Below, piece by piece: positions 30,246-40,965 of a DNA stretch of 64,000 bases. Location: contig DATMBG010000032.1 of NCBI GenBank assembly GCA_035559535.1, positions 1-64,000 on the forward strand, in the 5' to 3' direction. The stretch is from Candidatus Limnocylindrales bacterium. Its GTDB lineage: Bacteria > Moduliflexota > Moduliflexia > Moduliflexales > JAUQPW01. The notes beneath the pieces are model-generated. The model saw nothing but the letters and a program-made list of their open reading frames with translations, did no database searches and was not told where the DNA came from. The position numbers and the translations under genes are program-made. Each line of letters begins with the position of its first letter. Position 1 is the first letter of the stretch.

Positions 30246-33200
30246 TTAGGGGACTTCATAGATACTGATGGTCCCTGTTCCTTCTCCTACGGCGAGAAGC
30301 TTACCATCGGGGCTGAAAGCGATCGATGAAGTGACATACCCTGATTCAGACAACGTTTTAATTATTTGACCACCGGCTACATCCCAAAGGGTTAGAGAAT
30401 GATTTTCATCGGCCCCTTCAGAAACCAATATCCTCCCGTCCGGACTAAATAGAACCCTTCCGGTACTGAACACTGTGTGAAGAACCTGACCGCTTTCTAC
30501 ATTCCACAGGGCTACTTTACCCAGCTCATCCTTTAAGGCAAGGAGTTTACCGTCAGGACTAAAAATTATAGAAGATAAGGGTAGGGAAGAATAGATCTCC
30601 CGCTGTAAAGTTTTTATAACCTGGCCGGTTTGAGCATCCAGGAGCAGGACTGAGTTGTTTCGACTAATCACAACCAGGGTTTTGAAATCGGGACTGACGG
30701 TAACATATTGGATATTTCCTATATCCGTCAACTCTACCCGTGAGTTACTCCGGACCGGGTTAAAGAAAAAACCATACAGGGGGAAGACCTGCAAAATTCT
30801 GTCCACCCCTCCACTTTCCCTGTTCCAGAACAAAATAGAATCCTGACTTTGAGAAGCCAGCAATTGAGCATCCGGACTAAAAAACAGGGAAACAATATCA
30901 CTGGAAGGACCGGCCAATACCTTGGCAATATCTACGGCCCTTACATCCCAGAGAAGGAGTAAGCCGTCCTCACTTCCTGTAGCTAATAAGCGATGTACCG
31001 GATCAAAGGCCAGGGAAGTAATTTTGTGATCTGTACCGCTTAAAACGGTAAGCGTTTTACCACTGCTTACCTCCCAGGAGGCAAAGGTCTTATAGCCCGG
31101 ATTACCCATTGCGGCGATAATCTGACCATCCGAGCTGAAGGTGACAGAAGAAACAGGTACCTCGGATTTTTCAAAAGTTTTAATGAGACTCCCCCGCTGA
31201 CTATCCCAGAGAGTTACCTGATCCTGTAAAAGGGTGGCCAAGAATCGCCCATCGGGACTAAAGACGACCGGACCTGTAAAACCTGAACTTTCTAAGCTTG
31301 TAAGCGTACTCCCTTTAGTTACATCCCACAAAATGATTTTATCATATCCCCCCGACGCAAAGACTTTACCATCCGGACTAAAGGAAAGAAAATCAAAGGG
31401 GCGGCTTGCCTCAAATGTTTTCAAAGGCTGCCCGGTAGTTCCATTCCAGAAAATAATTTTGCCATAACTGGTGGTAGCCAGCAGATTCTCCGAACTAAAT
31501 ACAAGACCCGTAATAGGGGTCTCATGCCCTTTAAGGGTCTTTAAGACCTGGCCATTTTCGATGCTTCGAAGGGCTATCCAATTCTGTTGGGGGCCCGTGG
31601 GAGAGATTAAAAATTTACTATCCGGGCTAAACACCAGAAGCCTAGTGGGAAGTTCGGACTCTGGAAGGGTCAAAATTGCGTTCCCATTCTGGACGTTCCA
31701 GAGTACTACTTCTGAGTGATCCGAGGAAATCAATGCCTGACCACTTGGACTAAAAAGAAGAACCTGAACAGGGTCCTTATGCCTGGCGAGCTTTTTTACC
31801 ACTTTCTTCACCTCTACATCCCACAAAACAATCTGATTATCCTTTGTAACCAGGGCCAATAACCTTCCATCCGGACTAAAAGTCAGGGGGGCATTTTCAA
31901 GGGGGTCTTGGTTAAGGATCACAAAGGTATCTCCTGTTGGGATATCCCACAGTAAGACGGTATCCGAAACCAGAACCAATTGTTTTCCATCGGGTCGAAA
32001 GACCAGATTATGAATCCGATGGTGAGGGCCTCTAAAGGATTTTAAAAGTTTTCCACGTTCCAGATCCCAAAGAAAAATAGGATGATCCGGGCCTGTACCT
32101 GCAGAAGCTAAGTAGTAACGACCGCTGGAATCCTTTTTACTAAAAGCAAGGGAGGTTATCGGGGTATCATGGCCTTCCAGAACTTTAAGTAACTTCCTGT
32201 CGGCCAGATTCCATAAAGCCACTTTTTTATCTGAGCTTCCGGCTGCGAGGGTCTGGGCATCCGGACTAAAGGAAAGAGATTGAATTGAACCCGGGTGAGA
32301 TTGACTGACCTGAAGAACCTGACCATCTTCTGCATTCCACAGGCTTATAGCCCCCCCGGCAACTCCCAACGTGCGACCATCCGGACTGTAGGTTACAATC
32401 TGAGGAAGGTCGTAATCTGTTGAAAAGGTCTTCACTACCTGATTCTCCAAAATATTCCATAAAATGAGGCTTTTATCCGTACTCCCTAAAACCAGAGTAT
32501 GGCCGTCTGGGCTGAAATCGGCAGATAAAATCCTTGCAGAAGAACGATCCATCAAAGAACTGGTAGGTAAAGAAGTATTTCCGTTCTGACTTGATAAAGG
32601 AGGAAGACAGGGTTGAGTACTTCCGCAGTCTGGAGAGGTAACCATCGAAGTATTGTTCCTGGCCTGTTGAAGGAAAGTTTCTGTAAGCGTGGCAACCTGC
32701 CTTCGGTTCATGGGATCCCACAAAACGAGGGTTCCATTTCTATCGATAGAGGCCAAAAGTTGGCCGTTAGGACTGAAAGCTATTTTATAAATCTCGGATC
32801 CATATTGTTCTAAAGTTCCCAGCAGGGATGTGGCACTCTGGATCCCACCCGTATTCCAGAGTAGGATTTTTCCATCATCTCCCCCTGAAGCCAGTAACTT
32901 TCCTTCTGGATGAAAGGCCAGGGTATTGATCCATCCTGTATGTCCTTTTAGCCTCCCTATCTTTTCTCCCCTGTCTGGATTCCAGAGTGTAACCAGATTA
33001 TCATAACCCCCTGAAGCTAAAAGCTGCCCATCAGGACTGAAGGAAAGGGCCAGGACTTTCTGATCTGTCTGTAGAGTTTTAAGCAAGTTTCCGCTTTTCA
33101 AATTCCAGAGAACAATATTATTTCCCTGGGCAATAGCTACTCGATCTCCACTTCGATCCACCGCCATGGCGGTATAGGGTTCTGAAGAAGCGTTAAAGGT

Positions 33201-33482
33201 ACGAACGAGTTGTAAAGTCTGGGCGTCCAGGAGTTCTAATCGATCTGGAGTTAAGCCTACTAAATACTTACCTTCCGGTAGATACTGAAGATTTTTAAAT
33301 TCCGCCCCACGTCCCAGTTTAAAAAGAGGCTCTTGAGCTCTGGGACGCAGGGATGGGGTTGATTTAACCTGTGAAGGCTGAGCGGGGGGTTTAATGGGTT
33401 TTGAAGGAGTTCCACAACTTATTACAAAGATCAGAATCAGCAATGTTCCAAGAACAGGTAATTTAATGCTATTCATAGGCAA
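30246..33482 (-). CDS. WD40-repeat lipoprotein (multiple beta-propellers)
   Basis: Lipobox VISC; roughly 20 FSPDG...LW[DN] repeats. Confidence 0.92.
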   Translation of the reverse strand: MPMNSIKLPVLGTLLILIFVISCGTPSKPIKPPAQPSQVKSTPSLRPRAQEPLFKLGRGAEFKNLQYLPEGKYLVGLTPDRLELLDAQTLQLVRTFNASSEPYTAMAVDRSGDRVAIAQGNNIVLWNLKSGNLLKTLQTDQKVLALSFSPDGQLLASGGYDNLVTLWNPDRGEKIGRLKGHTGWINTLAFHPEGKLLASGGDDGKILLWNTGGIQSATSLLGTLEQYGSEIYKIAFSPNGQLLASIDRNGTLVLWDPMNRRQVATLTETFLQQARNNTSMVTSPDCGSTQPCLPPLSSQNGNTSLPTSSLMDRSSARILSADFSPDGHTLVLGSTDKSLILWNILENQVVKTFSTDYDLPQIVTYSPDGRTLGVAGGAISLWNAEDGQVLQVSQSHPGSIQSLSFSPDAQTLAAGSSDKKVALWNLADRKLLKVLEGHDTPITSLAFSKKDSSGRYYLASAGTGPDHPIFLWDLERGKLLKSFRGPHHRIHNLVFRPDGKQLVLVSDTVLLWDIPTGDTFVILNQDPLENAPLTFSPDGRLLALVTKDNQIVLWDVEVKKVVKKLARHKDPVQVLLFSPSGQALISSDHSEVVLWNVQNGNAILTLPESELPTRLLVFSPDSKFLISPTGPQQNWIALRSIENGQVLKTLKGHETPITGLVFSSENLLATTSYGKIIFWNGTTGQPLKTFEASRPFDFLSFSPDGKVFASGGYDKIILWDVTKGSTLTSLESSGFTGPVVFSPDGRFLATLLQDQVTLWDSQRGSLIKTFEKSEVPVSSVTFSSDGQIIAAMGNPGYKTFASWEVSSGKTLTVLSGTDHKITSLAFDPVHRLLATGSEDGLLLLWDVRAVDIAKVLAGPSSDIVSLFFSPDAQLLASQSQDSILFWNRESGGVDRILQVFPLYGFFFNPVRSNSRVELTDIGNIQYVTVSPDFKTLVVISRNNSVLLLDAQTGQVIKTLQREIYSSLPLSSIIFSPDGKLLALKDELGKVALWNVESGQVLHTVFSTGRVLFSPDGRILVSEGADENHSLTLWDVAGGQIIKTLSESGYVTSSIAFSPDGKLLAVGEGTGTISIYEVP

Positions 33483-33551: not shown

Positions 33552-34034
33552 CTAGGTGCCCGGATCGAAAACTCTTATATCGGCCAGGGTTATCTCTCGA
33601 TTGAATCTGCGTCCATCTCGAATAAAGATAGCGATAATTTCTGCGACCGTACAAACGACCATGAGGATCAGAGAACGAGAAAGCGCGACATTACAGGGAG
33701 CCTCTGGAAGTGCAGCCGCCTCGTCCGCGATAATCGAACCGTATTTATAAACCTCATTCCATTTTACTTCGGCAAATCCATCATCACTCATACCGGCATG
33801 GATACAGGGAATACCCAATGCCGAACATTCCTTGCCTATGGCTATCCGTGAAGTCCAGTTATCAAAGGTATCCACAACCAGATCGGAACCCTTGAGTAGA
33901 GACTTTGCATTTATCGGGGTAACTTCAAACGAGGACGTTTGACCTACTAACCAACCAAATCGCGCTTCAGGACGTAATACAATCGTTGAAGGATAGGTAT
34001 CTATTACGTAATTCTGGAGTATACCCTCTTGCAA
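33552..34034 (-). pseudogene. ThiF/E1-like adenylyltransferase C-terminal half lacking the N-terminal GxGxxG region
   Basis: LLKGSDLVVDTFDNWTSR...IPCIHAG...PCNVALSR is ThiF-like; no ThiF N-terminus found in any upstream frame. Confidence 0.5.
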
Positions 34035-34411: not shown

Positions 34412-35728
34412 ATGAATATTAATTTCTATCACCTCAAGGACCTTTCCAGGTCAGCACGAGACCGATTATTGGAACGAACCCGAGTCGATGCCGAAGAGTA
34501 TGCCGCGTTAGTTAAACCCATTCTTGAAGAGGTTCGAAGGCGCGGTGATCTGGCCGTCATCGAATATACCCAAAAGTATGACGGGGTCGATCTATCCCCC
34601 CATCAACTCAAAATTTCCGAAGCAGAGATTAAATCTGCCTATCAGCGACTTTCTTCTTCTGTTCTTAAGGCTATAGAAACGGCCATTGCCCATGTTCAAG
34701 CTTTTCATCAGAAACAGATGCCGGAGTTATTCTGGATGACTGAGTTATTTCCCGGGATCCAGGCAGGTGAAAAGATTACGCCTATTGAATCGGTAGGGTT
34801 ATATGTTCCCGGGGGGAGGGGATTTTTTCCTTCCACCATGATCATGCTGGGAATTCCAGCCGTGGTAGCTCAAGTTCCTCAAATTGTTGTTTGTACGCCC
34901 CCTTTAAAGGATGGTTCTGTGGACCCAGCTACTCTGGTTGCGGCGGATCTCTGTGGAATTAAAAATATTTATCGAGTTGGAGGGGTTCAGGCCATGGGAG
35001 CCCTGGCTTATGGTACCGAAACCCTTCCTAAGGTCCTTAAAATTATAGGTCCCGGTAGTACCTATGTGACGGCAGCAAAACGAGTTTTGCGAGATGAGGT
35101 CGATGTAGGAATACCCGCCGGTCCCAGCGAATCTCTTATACTGACCGATGATACGGCAGATCCCTATCTGGCCTGTCTGGACCTGTTAATCGAGGCAGAG
35201 CATGGCTCTGATTCATCTGCTTACCTGATTACCTGCTCTGAAAGAGTAGGTCGGGCGGTTCGTCAACTCCTTCCTTCTCTTTTAGAAAAGGTACCCGAAT
35301 GGCGGAGGAAATTTTGTGAAGCTGTCTTTTCTACCTATGGGGGTATTATTATTGCGGAAGATTTAGATGAGGCCATCGCCTTTGTCAATGACTTCGCTCC
35401 TGAACATTTGGAGATCTTGTGCGAAAATCCTTTTGAGATTATGAAAAAAGTTAAAAACGCTGGGGAGATCCTTCTGGGAGAATATACTCCCATTTCGGCT
35501 TCGGTTTATGCCCTGGGAACGAATCATGTTCTTCCCACCACAAGATTTGCCCGGACATACTCGGCTTTATCGGTTTATGACTTTCTCAAAAGAAGTTCTA
35601 TTAGTTATTTAACCCGAGAAGGATTTGAAACTCTTAAAGATCCTGTTATAGCCTTAGCGGAGTATGAAGGATTTTTTACCCATGCTATGGCTGTTCGGGA
35701 ACGAAGGTTCAAATCTGAAAAGGACTGA
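34412..35728 (+). CDS. hisD: Histidinol dehydrogenase family protein (atypical paralogue)
   Basis: GLYVPGG, GGVQA, AGPSE, EAEHG, APEHL, GTNHVLPT; the usual QAEH is replaced by EAEH. Confidence 0.8.
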   Translation: MNINFYHLKDLSRSARDRLLERTRVDAEEYAALVKPILEEVRRRGDLAVIEYTQKYDGVDLSPHQLKISEAEIKSAYQRLSSSVLKAIETAIAHVQAFHQKQMPELFWMTELFPGIQAGEKITPIESVGLYVPGGRGFFPSTMIMLGIPAVVAQVPQIVVCTPPLKDGSVDPATLVAADLCGIKNIYRVGGVQAMGALAYGTETLPKVLKIIGPGSTYVTAAKRVLRDEVDVGIPAGPSESLILTDDTADPYLACLDLLIEAEHGSDSSAYLITCSERVGRAVRQLLPSLLEKVPEWRRKFCEAVFSTYGGIIIAEDLDEAIAFVNDFAPEHLEILCENPFEIMKKVKNAGEILLGEYTPISASVYALGTNHVLPTTRFARTYSALSVYDFLKRSSISYLTREGFETLKDPVIALAEYEGFFTHAMAVRERRFKSEKD

Positions 35729-35731
35729 TTT

Positions 35732-37345
35732 ATGGGTAAATTAACCCAAATCATTAAAATCAATGAGGCTCTTCAAAAAGGAGATCGAGAAACCGCCGTT
35801 AAACTTTTGAAAGATTTGAAAAAAAGAGCCAAGGATCCCGCTGCCATCAAATTTGCTGAGGATAAATTGAGGGAGTTGGGAATCCGCAATGAGGAAGTAG
35901 CAGAAGGGACGGTTATACGGGAGTATGAGAAGATAGAGCTTAAACCCAAAGGTAATCCTTCGGGTCGTCCCTATGGGTTTCGTAATCCGAGCTTTTCAGA
36001 TAGGAAAATGAGGGTCCAGGAAACTACAGGGTTAAGGACCCGGAAACCGGAGTTACGTTCCCATCAAAGCCCTACCAAGAGACCTTTTACTCAAAAACCG
36101 AAGATAGGTCGGGAGGTGCTGAAGTCCCCTGTCGAGGAAGGTAAGAAGGCAACCGTAAGGCCAGTGTTTCCACATCCTGTTGCTCCCAAATCTCCATCAG
36201 CCTCAACTACACCGGTCCAGAAGAAGCCTTTTAAGAAGAAACAGAAATTTAAACGTAAATCAAAGCTCCTGACTCCTGAAGAAATGGCTCGAAAGGAGGC
36301 AGCTCGTAAGTTAGTTAATACGTACAAAATCAGTTTTACCGGGGCCTATCAAATTGTAGATGGAAAATTAACCCTGGAAGAATATCAGGCCAAGCAGGCA
36401 GAACTGGCGGCTAAACGTGCTGCCTGGCAAGAACAGCGACGAAAACGGGAAGAACGCAAAGCAGCCGCGTTGGCCCTGGCAGAAAAATATAACCTGGATC
36501 CGAGTATTACTTATCAGATTGTAGATGGCCGCTTTACCTTGGAGGAGTATTTGAAGTTAAGGGAATTAAAACCTAAAAAGCTTCTCCTTCGCCGAAGAAA
36601 GGAAGGGGTGGGAAGTTGGTACTTCCAACAGCTCCTGCAACATCAAACCCCCCTCGTTTTTGTACTCTATAATGGACAATCCCTGGTGAGCCCTATCACA
36701 GAAATACAAAAGTATGATTTTCGCCTGGGAGAGCAAATAATTCCCAAACTGCATATTACCCATTGTTACGAAGCCAGCCAGGCCGAAAAGATCAAAGAGT
36801 TGATTCTGGTCAATGAAGAAGTCAAGGCGAAAGGTTTGGTTCCGGCTATCAAACCCATTGACCGTTATCTAATTCCGGATAAGGATTTGGAGCGCTGTCT
36901 GGAAGAAAAAAATCTTGTAACCTTTACAACACTGGGAGGTGAAGTCATCCGAGGCGTAATCGAATGGCTTGATAGTTTCCAGATTAAAGTTAATTTACAA
37001 GAAAATATGGGGGTTGTCGTATTCCGACATGGAATCCACGATGCCATCCTTCAACCGGAAGTTGGAGAAGCATCTGGACAGGCTCCCCCACAACTTGAAA
37101 AAACCCCTGTGGAAATTCCCATTGAAAAAATCTCTGTGGAGTTGGCCATTCATCAAAATACCCGATTGAATCCGGAGATAACTCAAAAAGTTCGGGAACA
37201 GACCAAAACCCTGGGGAAAATTCCGAAGCCGATCTGGGTTGCCTACGATAAAGAACGAGATGTATATGTTTTACTGGACGGGTTTCGGAGATTGACCATC
37301 GCCCAAGAATTAGGATTAAAGACTTTACCGGCAGTGGTCGAGTAA
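35732..37345 (+). CDS. Multidomain protein: basic low-complexity region, two helical repeats, two Hfq/Sm-like domains, C-terminal ParB/Srx-like domain
   Basis: YQIVDGxxTLEEY twice; LVTFTTLGGEVIRGVIEWLDSFQIKV...VVFRHGI resembles Hfq; PIWV...YVLLDGFRRLTIAQELG resembles the ParB N-domain. Confidence 0.7.
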   Translation: MGKLTQIIKINEALQKGDRETAVKLLKDLKKRAKDPAAIKFAEDKLRELGIRNEEVAEGTVIREYEKIELKPKGNPSGRPYGFRNPSFSDRKMRVQETTGLRTRKPELRSHQSPTKRPFTQKPKIGREVLKSPVEEGKKATVRPVFPHPVAPKSPSASTTPVQKKPFKKKQKFKRKSKLLTPEEMARKEAARKLVNTYKISFTGAYQIVDGKLTLEEYQAKQAELAAKRAAWQEQRRKREERKAAALALAEKYNLDPSITYQIVDGRFTLEEYLKLRELKPKKLLLRRRKEGVGSWYFQQLLQHQTPLVFVLYNGQSLVSPITEIQKYDFRLGEQIIPKLHITHCYEASQAEKIKELILVNEEVKAKGLVPAIKPIDRYLIPDKDLERCLEEKNLVTFTTLGGEVIRGVIEWLDSFQIKVNLQENMGVVVFRHGIHDAILQPEVGEASGQAPPQLEKTPVEIPIEKISVELAIHQNTRLNPEITQKVREQTKTLGKIPKPIWVAYDKERDVYVLLDGFRRLTIAQELGLKTLPAVVE

Positions 37346-40891: not shown

Positions 40892-40965
40892 AGCCCCCGA
40901 GAGGATTTGAACCTCCCCACAGGGATCCGGAGTCCCTTGCTCTATCCGGGCTGAGCTACGGGGGC
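40892..40965 (-). tRNA. tRNA-Arg(CCG)
   Basis: GCCCCCG/CGGGGGC acceptor stem; GCTC/GAGC D-arm; AGGGA-CTCCGGA-TCCCT anticodon arm; GGAGG-TTCAAAT-CCTCT T-arm; CCA not encoded. Confidence 0.93.

Follow-up and report, generated by a model that had tools for sequence, protein, structure and literature searches.

What might a single bacterial polypeptide do in which two domains of the Hfq type are followed by a fold otherwise known from ParB and sulfiredoxin (Srx)? The question is raised by an open reading frame (ORF) of 537 codons (537 amino acids, aa, plus stop) at positions 35732-37345 (+) of a 64,000-nucleotide (nt) stretch of DNA, hereafter the window, which comprises positions 1 to 64,000 of contig DATMBG010000032.1 (assembly GCA_035559535.1, Candidatus Limnocylindrales bacterium; Moduliflexota in GTDB). 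The evidence points, with about an even chance in our judgment, to a modular nucleic acid-binding protein of the Hfq superfamily, that is, a chaperone whose tandem Sm domains form a trimeric pseudo-hexamer and whose tail is regulatory and possibly binds a nucleoside triphosphate (NTP). New is the conserved ParB/Srx tail on a double-Sm unit, in a genome in which no canonical Hfq was detected. The parts of the protein that carry this reading are the following (pLDDT, predicted local distance difference test):

36608..36772, + strand: Sm1, a diverged Hfq-like domain (aa 293-347); helix and five strands at pLDDT 96-98, matched to Sm2 with hhalign
36773..36877, + strand: linker between the Sm domains (aa 348-382), two short helices in the model; contains R378
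36878..37054, + strand: Sm2, an Hfq-type domain (aa 383-441), from profiles and superposition on Hfq; contains G403, G408, F416, and F431-R432-H433-G434
37055..37102, + strand: short linker of low confidence (aa 442-457), pLDDT about 50; 38-81% identity among orthologues
37103..37342, + strand: minimal ParB/Srx (ParB-CTPase) fold (aa 458-537), from Foldseek, structural superposition, and alignment

The C-terminal part (aa 285-537) was modeled with AlphaFold2 on an alignment of 148 sequences, comprising that segment of the window protein and 147 relatives from the series P0002-P0154 (P0044, P0076, P0133, P0136, P0144, and P0148 were omitted as long multi-domain or partial proteins). The model reached a pLDDT of 90.1 and a predicted template modeling score (pTM) of 0.68. 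Sm2 consists of a helix (383-391) followed by five strands (to 440) and, taken as aa 382-442, superimposed on Hfq from C. crescentus (6gwk_A) with Z 7.7 and a root mean square deviation (rmsd) of 1.1 Å over 60/63 residues; many further Hfq entries ranked next. While the single sequence matched Hfq from S. aureus in phmmer with an E value of 0.057, a six-sequence profile (the window protein and its orthologues) reached the same protein (1kq1) with E 2e-6, and its PDB matches at E<=1 were Hfq in 30/30 cases. In the phmmer alignment, the S. aureus Hfq counterparts are G29 for G403, G34 for G408, D40 for D414, Y42 for F416, and Y56-K57-H58-A59 for F431-R432-H433-G434. Conservation in the family was high at these positions: G403 was present in 146/148 rows, G408 in 143/148, H433 in 146/148, an aromatic residue at 416 in 145/148 (Y 92, F 37, W 16), and a basic one at 432 in 131/148 (R 124, K 7). 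Judged from these residues, Sm2 retains the Hfq signature, namely the two glycines, the aromatic residue of Hfq position 42, and the basic-His pair of the Sm2 motif.

The first Sm domain is more diverged, and in fold searches with the aa 285-537 model no structure-search row spanned it alone. It was assigned because its secondary structure follows the same pattern (helix 293-304, then five strands to 347), because family sub-alignments of copy 1 and copy 2 matched each other (hhalign probability 96.3%, E 1.8e-9, 39 columns), and because the first copy of relative P0008 on its own exceeds the Pfam cut-off for Hfq (33.5 vs 27 bits). Both Hfq-like segments proposed in the sequence-only reading, one at aa ~382-440 and a more divergent one at aa ~295-346, were thereby confirmed, and the two domains are, by their sequences, products of an internal duplication. 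Sm1 keeps Y328 (aromatic in 139/148 rows) and K339 (144/148). The position equivalent to the Sm2 histidine is L340, and across the family it is Leu in 84 and His in only 18 of 148 rows. Of the Hfq signature, Sm1 retains only the aromatic residue and the lysine. The linker between the domains has conserved positions of its own, P371 (124/148 rows) and Arg378 (nt 36863-36865), which lies just before the Sm2 helix. The latter is found in 146/148 rows, equal to the histidine of the Hfq motif, and no known Hfq feature accounts for it.

The C-terminal tail folds in the model into a strand-helix-strand-strand-helix-strand unit (aa 460-536). Its best Foldseek match was ParB from M. xanthus (7bnr_A, E 3.4e-5), and superposition on residues 38-112 of 7o0n_A, also M. 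xanthus ParB, gave Z 12.5 and rmsd 2.2 Å over 75 residues; across ParB, Noc, and KorB, Z ranged from 12.5 to 10.6. Sulfiredoxin from A. thaliana (6ky4) was matched with Z 11.1 and rmsd 1.8 Å over 76/89 residues, and further matches were PadC (6ryk, Z 9.3), free serine kinase (5x0b, Z 9.3), and SbnI. PHROG matches of the tail were to ParB-like families only (E 5.7e-5), and a BFVD fold search of the model also returned ParB/Srx matches (three rows with high rmsd were dismissed as noise). The ParB/sulfiredoxin core that had been suspected at aa ~460-537 is, thus, well supported by structure.

The phosphate-binding Box II of ParB is recognizable as G517-F518-R519-R520, which aligns to G-E-R-R of M. 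xanthus ParB. Its glycine and both arginines are invariant in 12/12 tailed members of the family, and the residue between is F, Y, L, or M. A helix (481-494) and a loop (495-500) of the type of Box I, the C motif by which the base is contacted, are also present in the model; typical lengths are ~12 residues for the helix and ~6 for the loop according to the available part of a survey of ParB-CTPase-fold fusions (Kaljević et al, PMC12704722). The same part of that survey describes Box II as a near-invariable GxxR and Box III, which contacts phosphates and magnesium in canonical ParB, as often missing in orphan ParBs. Several of the fusion proteins assayed there bound CTP, ATP, or GTP, with a nucleotide specificity that could not be predicted from sequence. 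In the window protein, nothing follows the N-domain of ParB: there is no helix-turn-helix (HTH), no C-terminal dimerization domain, and no ParA-binding motif before the end at aa 537. All 12 of the 12 tailed members stop 2-8 residues past the last strand, so the absence of Box III, HTH, and dimerization domain reflects design rather than truncation of one gene. The active site of sulfiredoxin is a cysteine in a conserved GCHR-type motif; at the position of this motif the tail has no cysteine, the equivalent stretch being D-G-F-R-R. From its residues, the tail is more likely a regulatory nucleotide-binding or interaction module than a catalytic one.

Taken together, the Sm unit and the tail would allow the following mode of action. 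Three chains would join via their tandem Sm units into a pseudo-hexameric ring with three Hfq-like and three altered pockets in alternation, a possibility akin to the question asked by the authors of work on a two-domain Hfq from Z. mobilis, whether three chains form a hexamer-like ring (PMC2877685, available in part). The ring would bind single-stranded RNA, probably U-rich, and the basic region in the N-terminal half (pI, isoelectric point, 10.6), together with the helical repeats that follow it, would add unspecific affinity for RNA or DNA. The ParB/Srx tail would bind an NTP or pair with another tail, and this binding or pairing would gate the association of rings with each other or the release of substrate; catalysis would not be expected. 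A more specific version is a nucleotide-gated Hfq, in which a ParB-type switch operated by CTP, ATP, or GTP sits on the trimeric Sm ring, the tails pair between rings or clamp RNA, and control is thereby exerted on how RNA (or RNA together with DNA) is loaded, released, or condensed. We regard this version as unlikely; if true, an RNA chaperone would for the first time be connected to the ParB-CTPase switch, and the protein would be the Hfq equivalent of a lineage without detected canonical Hfq.

Several observations weigh against the chaperone reading. With the single sequence, the curated Hfq models stayed under their cut-offs (Pfam Hfq, E 2e-3, 18.1-20.8 bits, cut-off 27; Hfq_1, E 1.4e-3, 19.1-21 bits, cut-off 27; TIGR02383, E 5e-5, 23 bits, cut-off 61.7), and so did Pfam ParB_N with the tail (E 4.6e-3, 17.4 bits, cut-off 26.3). 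Pro382 pairs with Gln8 of S. aureus Hfq in the phmmer alignment, and family members differ at this position (P 41, K 32, S 31 of 148 rows); the functional role of Gln8, and that of the other pocket residues, is the one known from S. aureus Hfq-RNA work. Half of the pockets are predicted to differ from those of Hfq, Sm1 having leucine for histidine. In the tail, Box III is absent, the alignment ending at ParB residue 112 and at position 77/95 of the Pfam profile; the sequence of the Box I region differs among the three tailed clades; and Phe518 sits at the position of E93 of M. xanthus ParB, the glutamate mutated in 7o0n (E93A). Because Box III is missing and Phe occupies the E93 position, ParB-like hydrolysis is unlikely for this sequence. 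Three tails on a trimer are a misfit to the two-fold pairing of ParB N-domains. Lastly, the HTH and HU partners of relatives and a paralogue coupled to a methyltransferase gene (both below) suggest DNA as much as RNA as the ligand.

The points concerning the tail also bear on the best-surviving alternative, which leaves the rest of the protein as in the chaperone reading and makes the tail a nucleotide-independent module for interaction or self-association, a remnant of the ParB N-domain. Sulfiredoxin and PadC use the ParB/Srx fold partly as a docking surface, and PadC is among the tail matches; the tail is, moreover, cut down to an Srx-sized core and varies among clades in the Box I region. 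On the other hand, a Box II glycine and two arginines that are invariant over three clades only 21-29% identical are hard to explain without a phosphate ligand, and the NTP binding by several of the orphan ParB-fold fusions assayed in the survey (PMC12704722, available in part) speaks for such a ligand here as well. This alternative is a real possibility, if a doubtful one.

How widespread the double-Sm unit is was determined with an exhaustive profile search over 1.84 billion cluster representatives (50% identity). At E<=1e-3 the family comprised 390 representatives; the stricter thresholds of E<=1e-10 and E<=1e-30 left 195 and 7, respectively. The region common to the listed members was profile positions ~290-440, which span the two Sm-like segments. 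A word-indexed search (7,997 candidates scored, threshold E<=0.001) had returned 5 proteins, four of them full-length at 62-92% identity and one a 359-aa relative without the C-terminal tail. It returned no shorter relatives of aa 190-537, a blank due to limited sensitivity, since the exhaustive search found many. Pfam Hfq matched 80/148 and Hfq_1 56/148 rows of the alignment at E<=0.01, some members scoring above the cut-off, and some are annotated as 'sRNA-binding regulator protein Hfq' in one source. Among structure neighbors of about aa 285-445 in the Atlas, the commonest phyla were Poribacteria (with a cold-shock domain, CSD), Thermodesulfobacteriota, Myxococcota, Nitrospirota, and Pseudomonadota; the top neighbor was a CSD-containing cluster in which Poribacteria were the commonest phylum, and double Hfq proteins of 160 aa were also present.

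Partner domains in the 148 rows were CSD (13), HTH_3 of the XRE type (4), Pfam ParB_N (5), HU (1), HEAT (1), and DnaJ_C (1). Among individual relatives, P0010, P0011, P0029, P0062, P0026, and P0044 combine the double-Sm unit with one or two CSDs, with an XRE-type HTH (sometimes CSD and HTH together), or with HEAT repeats, and P0144, which lies outside the 148 rows, carries further Hfq/LSM copies and an S1 domain besides the unit. The fusion partners recurring across the family are, thus, nucleic acid binders (CSD in 13/148, HTH_3 in 4/148, and S1 in P0144).

By alignment, the ParB tail was present in 12/148 rows, which fall into three clades: the window protein with its four orthologues; P0093, P0100, P0108, P0128, and P0154 (466-491 aa; the N-terminus is Lys-rich, and between two and four similar helical repeats are present); and the short proteins P0105 and P0146. 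Overall identity between these clades is 21-29%. In a quick maximum-likelihood tree, computed from the double-Sm columns only, the window protein fell within the tandem Hfq-like family and the first two tailed groups joined (86 in the Shimodaira-Hasegawa-like approximate likelihood ratio test, SH-aLRT), the third standing apart; the tail label required 2 changes on this tree, although the tail may still have had a single origin. A search for related loci yielded 26 loci, of which only L013-L016 had the Sm-ParB architecture and the other 22 the tail motif alone. Two of the former are distant tailed relatives with unlike surroundings, L015 (ThiF and deoxynucleoside kinase) and L014 (MiaE, Omp85, Ser/Thr kinase, and methyltransferase), and no operon partner was common to them and the window. 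The survey of homologues and gene neighborhoods that the sequence-only reading had recommended, therefore, revealed a large double-Sm family, three tailed clades, and neighborhoods that are not conserved. PADLOC returned no match for 5 family members.

The genome from which the window derives (95.8% complete, 58 contigs) contained no Pfam Hfq match above the cut-off; a match on contig C44 (E 0.015) was rejected as chance because it lies in a cytochrome-c-type ORF. The family profile detected only the 537-aa gene and one paralogue (E 7.6e-16):

Contig C12:139690-140094 (L050:3682-4110), + strand: 142-aa double-Sm paralogue, from the family profile and hhalign

This paralogue matched the family with an hhalign probability of 98.7% and Hfq_1 with 27.1 bits. 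A cysteine replaces the Sm2 histidine, and the conserved linker arginine is absent. At its stop, the paralogue overlaps the start of a gene for a 762-aa DNA methyltransferase (Eco57I/N6_Mtase/TaqI_C) by 4 nt. The congener genome also has the 142-aa paralogue. In the sister family of the same order, 0/7 genomes matched the family profile, and the matches in 6 unrelated genomes were to single-Sm proteins resembling ordinary Hfq. As the searches of this genome and of the sister family detected no canonical hfq, a negative that holds for the genomes searched and does not prove absence, the 537-aa protein and its paralogue may supply Hfq-like functions in the lineage.

Both the partner domains and the paralogue have to be considered for an alternative in which the protein is chiefly DNA-binding, a nucleoid-associated or DNA-organizing factor whose Sm ring, basic tail, and ParB-type arginine motif act on DNA, something of which ParB N-domains and Hfq are both capable. 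The best structural matches of its C-terminal tail are the DNA-clamp proteins ParB, Noc, and KorB, relatives are fused to XRE-type HTH (4/148) and HU (1/148), the paralogue is coupled by the 4-nt overlap to a DNA methyltransferase gene, the pI is about 10 in the N-terminal half, and fairly unspecific contacts with DNA are noted for Hfq and archaeal Sm proteins (PMC3710371, available in part). The protein itself, however, lacks domains for sequence-specific DNA binding, such as an HTH, and the commonest partner in the family is CSD (13/148), which, like the S1 domain of P0144, binds single-stranded nucleic acid, mainly RNA. The most conserved positions are, moreover, those of the Hfq proximal pocket, and the genome has a separate canonical ParB on another contig (119.6 bits). 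A chiefly DNA-directed role is, therefore, unlikely.

Less probable still is a sequence-specific translational repressor of one or few mRNAs, similar to FljA, an mRNA-binding repressor that acts on fliC mRNA. A Flag1_repress (PF03614) cluster was among the Atlas neighbors of the double-Sm unit (template modeling score, TM, 0.47 by query and 0.71 by target, 142 residues aligned), and the C-terminal Sm domain of an FljA-family protein from phage SSU5 aligns in register with Sm2, although this hhalign match was weak (probability 32%, E 4.8e-4, 47 columns). PF03614 had no match at E<=10 in either the protein or the genome, the unconserved gene neighborhoods of relatives do not suggest a dedicated target, and the long basic region makes a broad affinity likelier than one for one or few mRNAs. 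We, therefore, consider such a repressor quite improbable and the general chaperone the better account of the protein.

An RNA-binding enzyme, with the ParB/Srx domain acting as NTPase, kinase, nuclease, or sulfiredoxin-like activity on the bound RNA, is very unlikely: CTPases, free serine kinases (5x0b, Z 9.3), SbnI, and sulfiredoxin all have such a fold, and the phosphate-binding G-x-R-R motif is invariant in the tailed clades, but Box III is lacking, the residue aligned to E93 of M. xanthus ParB is Phe, Tyr, Leu, or Met, no Cys or His is found at the positions of the sulfiredoxin or nuclease motifs, and the second domain of the serine kinase relatives is missing (of their chains of 240-254 residues, only 1-90 align). 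The label "enzyme" in the sequence-only reading was consequently given up in favor of the nucleic acid-binding chaperone with a regulatory tail.

Upstream of the Sm domains lies the basic N-terminal half. A whole-protein model on 6 sequences was poor (pLDDT 51.7), and the C-terminal model on 148 sequences was used instead. In this shallow whole-protein model and in the translation, three parts could be discerned:

35732..35893, + strand: three-helix head (aa 1-54), helices 3-15, 19-32, and 36-48 at pLDDT 70-84
35894..36286, + strand: Lys/Arg/Pro-rich basic region (aa 55-185), predicted disordered from composition and pLDDT
36287..36607, + strand: two helical YQIVDG..TLEEY repeats with a long charged helix between them (aa 186-292)

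The basic region contains 21 K, 17 P, and 12 R among 131 residues. Its pLDDT is 29-38 with no secondary structure to ~aa 160 and 53-59 at aa 161-180, and a helix begins at 182. The repeats are located at aa 206-219 and 261-273, and the helices of this part have a pLDDT of 83-91 at aa 181-250, of 65-79 at 251-280, and of 36 at the C-terminal end. Both the two repeats and the Lys/Arg/Pro-rich stretch were, thus, found as first described, and similar helical repeats occur in the distant ParB-tailed relatives P0093 and P0154. Aa 9-68 resemble, with 34% identity and E 1e-4 among the candidates, the histidine phosphotransfer (HPt) region of a hybrid histidine kinase at a Thiotrichaceae locus (L004). 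Because the context of the phospho-accepting histidine is absent from the window protein, this was treated as a chance resemblance between helices.

With the 537-aa protein as the query, 2/41 related genomes matched, its own and one of the same genus. Identity of the window protein to the four orthologues was 76-98% in the head, 27-76% (with indels) in the basic region, 79-98% in the helical repeats, 76-96% in Sm1, 63-97% in Sm2, and 86-100% in the ParB/Srx tail, which is, thus, the best-conserved region among them. On account of this regional conservation, the gene is real and under constraint.

The ORF directly follows a gene for histidine biosynthesis:

34412..35728, + strand: hisD (histidinol dehydrogenase), 438 aa; PF00815, E 4.7e-151

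The junction sequence has the TGA stop of hisD 3 nt ahead of the ATG of the ORF, and AAAGGA is located 8-13 nt 5′ of this ATG. The frame and its start 3 bp after hisD were, thus, exactly as first annotated. Because the hisD stop lies only 3 nt before the ORF start, the two genes are probably cotranscribed. At 20 nt 3′ of the ORF, two ABC permease genes and a gene for a solute-binding protein lie on the opposite strand. The gene order around hisD and the ORF in the congener (locus L003) matches that in the window. The 537-aa gene looks like a stand-alone chromosomal gene.

Upstream of hisD, an ORF of 160 aa (33552-34034, -) matches the ThiF profile at positions 97-144 of 238 only and may, from this partial match, be a fragment or have a mis-called start. 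A full ThiF-family gene is located two genes upstream of one ParB-tailed relative (L015:2929-3957, -), so that ThiF-like ORFs are found near both. Further upstream in the window, 30246-33482 (-) encodes a 1,078-aa protein made up almost entirely of WD40 β-propeller repeats (68 Pfam families matched, every one of the propeller type). At gathering score, Rfam matched only one tRNA gene in the window (40892-40965, -; 57.4 bits).

Many bacteria have Hfq as their central RNA chaperone, and large parts of bacterial diversity are said to lack it. That the ParB-CTPase fold is a general NTP-binding switch, reused by fusion to other domains, has only recently been recognized. Against this background, a conserved Sm-ParB fusion suggests that an Sm ring can come under nucleotide control or be tethered by a ParB-type module. 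The gene belongs to a big tandem Hfq family, and only one other Hfq-like gene was detected in its genome; the product of the gene, a compact, expressible protein, bears on six-fold rings from tandem chains, on the ligands of ParB folds without Box III, and on the replacement of Hfq.

In the literature searched, no paper was found on tandem Hfq-ParB proteins or an Hfq-ParB fusion, nor one that names the tandem Hfq-like family. The available part of a review on Sm proteins lists zinc-finger-Hfq and other fusions but no fusion to ParB (PMC3710371). In the 2025 survey of ParB-CTPase-fold fusions (PMC12704722), the terms Hfq, Sm-like, and LSM are absent from the main text, and Hfq, LSM, PF17209, and Sm-like are absent from 6 supplement files (further supplements may exist); the fusion partners named in the available part relate to DNA and RNA, for example methyltransferases, nucleases, HTH, and ASCH domains, Sm/Hfq not being among them. 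The sequence-only reading had known of no characterized protein with this architecture, which holds in so far as no paper on an Hfq-ParB fusion was found; the protein does not, however, stand isolated, given the 390 representatives of its family and the tail in three diverged clades.

Among known systems, FljA/Flag1_repress (PF03614), an Atlas structure neighbor, is similar in size and in the predicted build from two Sm-like domains, but FljA is without basic region, repeats, or ParB tail. With ParB, Noc, KorB, PadC, and sulfiredoxin, the protein shares the fold of aa 458-537, and with ParB also the Box II motif G-x-R-R and a helix and loop of the Box I type that are similar in length. The tail differs from ParB in lacking Box III, HTH, dimerization domain, and ParA-binding motif and in having Phe in place of the Glu of GERR; from sulfiredoxin it differs in lacking the catalytic Cys, so that only the fold matches (6ky4). 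A canonical partition ParB has a parS-binding HTH, a dimerization domain, and parA as its neighbor, whereas the neighbors of the window gene are hisD and ABC permeases.

With Hfq itself (PF17209, TIGR02383; 1KQ1, 6GWK, 1HK9), the protein shares the Sm fold in Sm2 (rmsd 1.1 Å), the G..G pattern of the Sm1 motif, the aromatic residue of position 42, and the basic-His-small motif (F-R-H-G here and Y-K-H-A in S. aureus). Hfq has only 70-100 aa, and its C-terminal tail is short; the window protein, in contrast, is a 537-aa chain with two Sm domains, of which the first lacks the His; its N-terminal half is basic, its tail is of the ParB/Srx type, and it scores under the curated cut-offs. Two Sm-like domains per polypeptide are likewise found in ZMO0347 of Zymomonas mobilis, a two-domain Hfq of Sphingomonadales, in which Hfq interaction sites and nucleotide-binding pockets occur twice and for which the available part of the report mentions no other domain type (PMC2877685). 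By that description, ZMO0347 is set apart from the window protein, in which copy 1 is degenerate and whose double-Sm unit forms part of a separate family, one fused to varied partners. In this unnamed tandem Hfq-like family of Poribacteria and others, the CSD-fused members (13/148) are without the ParB/Srx tail, but they are built around the same unit of ~150 aa, Sm1-linker-Sm2, with K339, R378, G403, G408, and H433.

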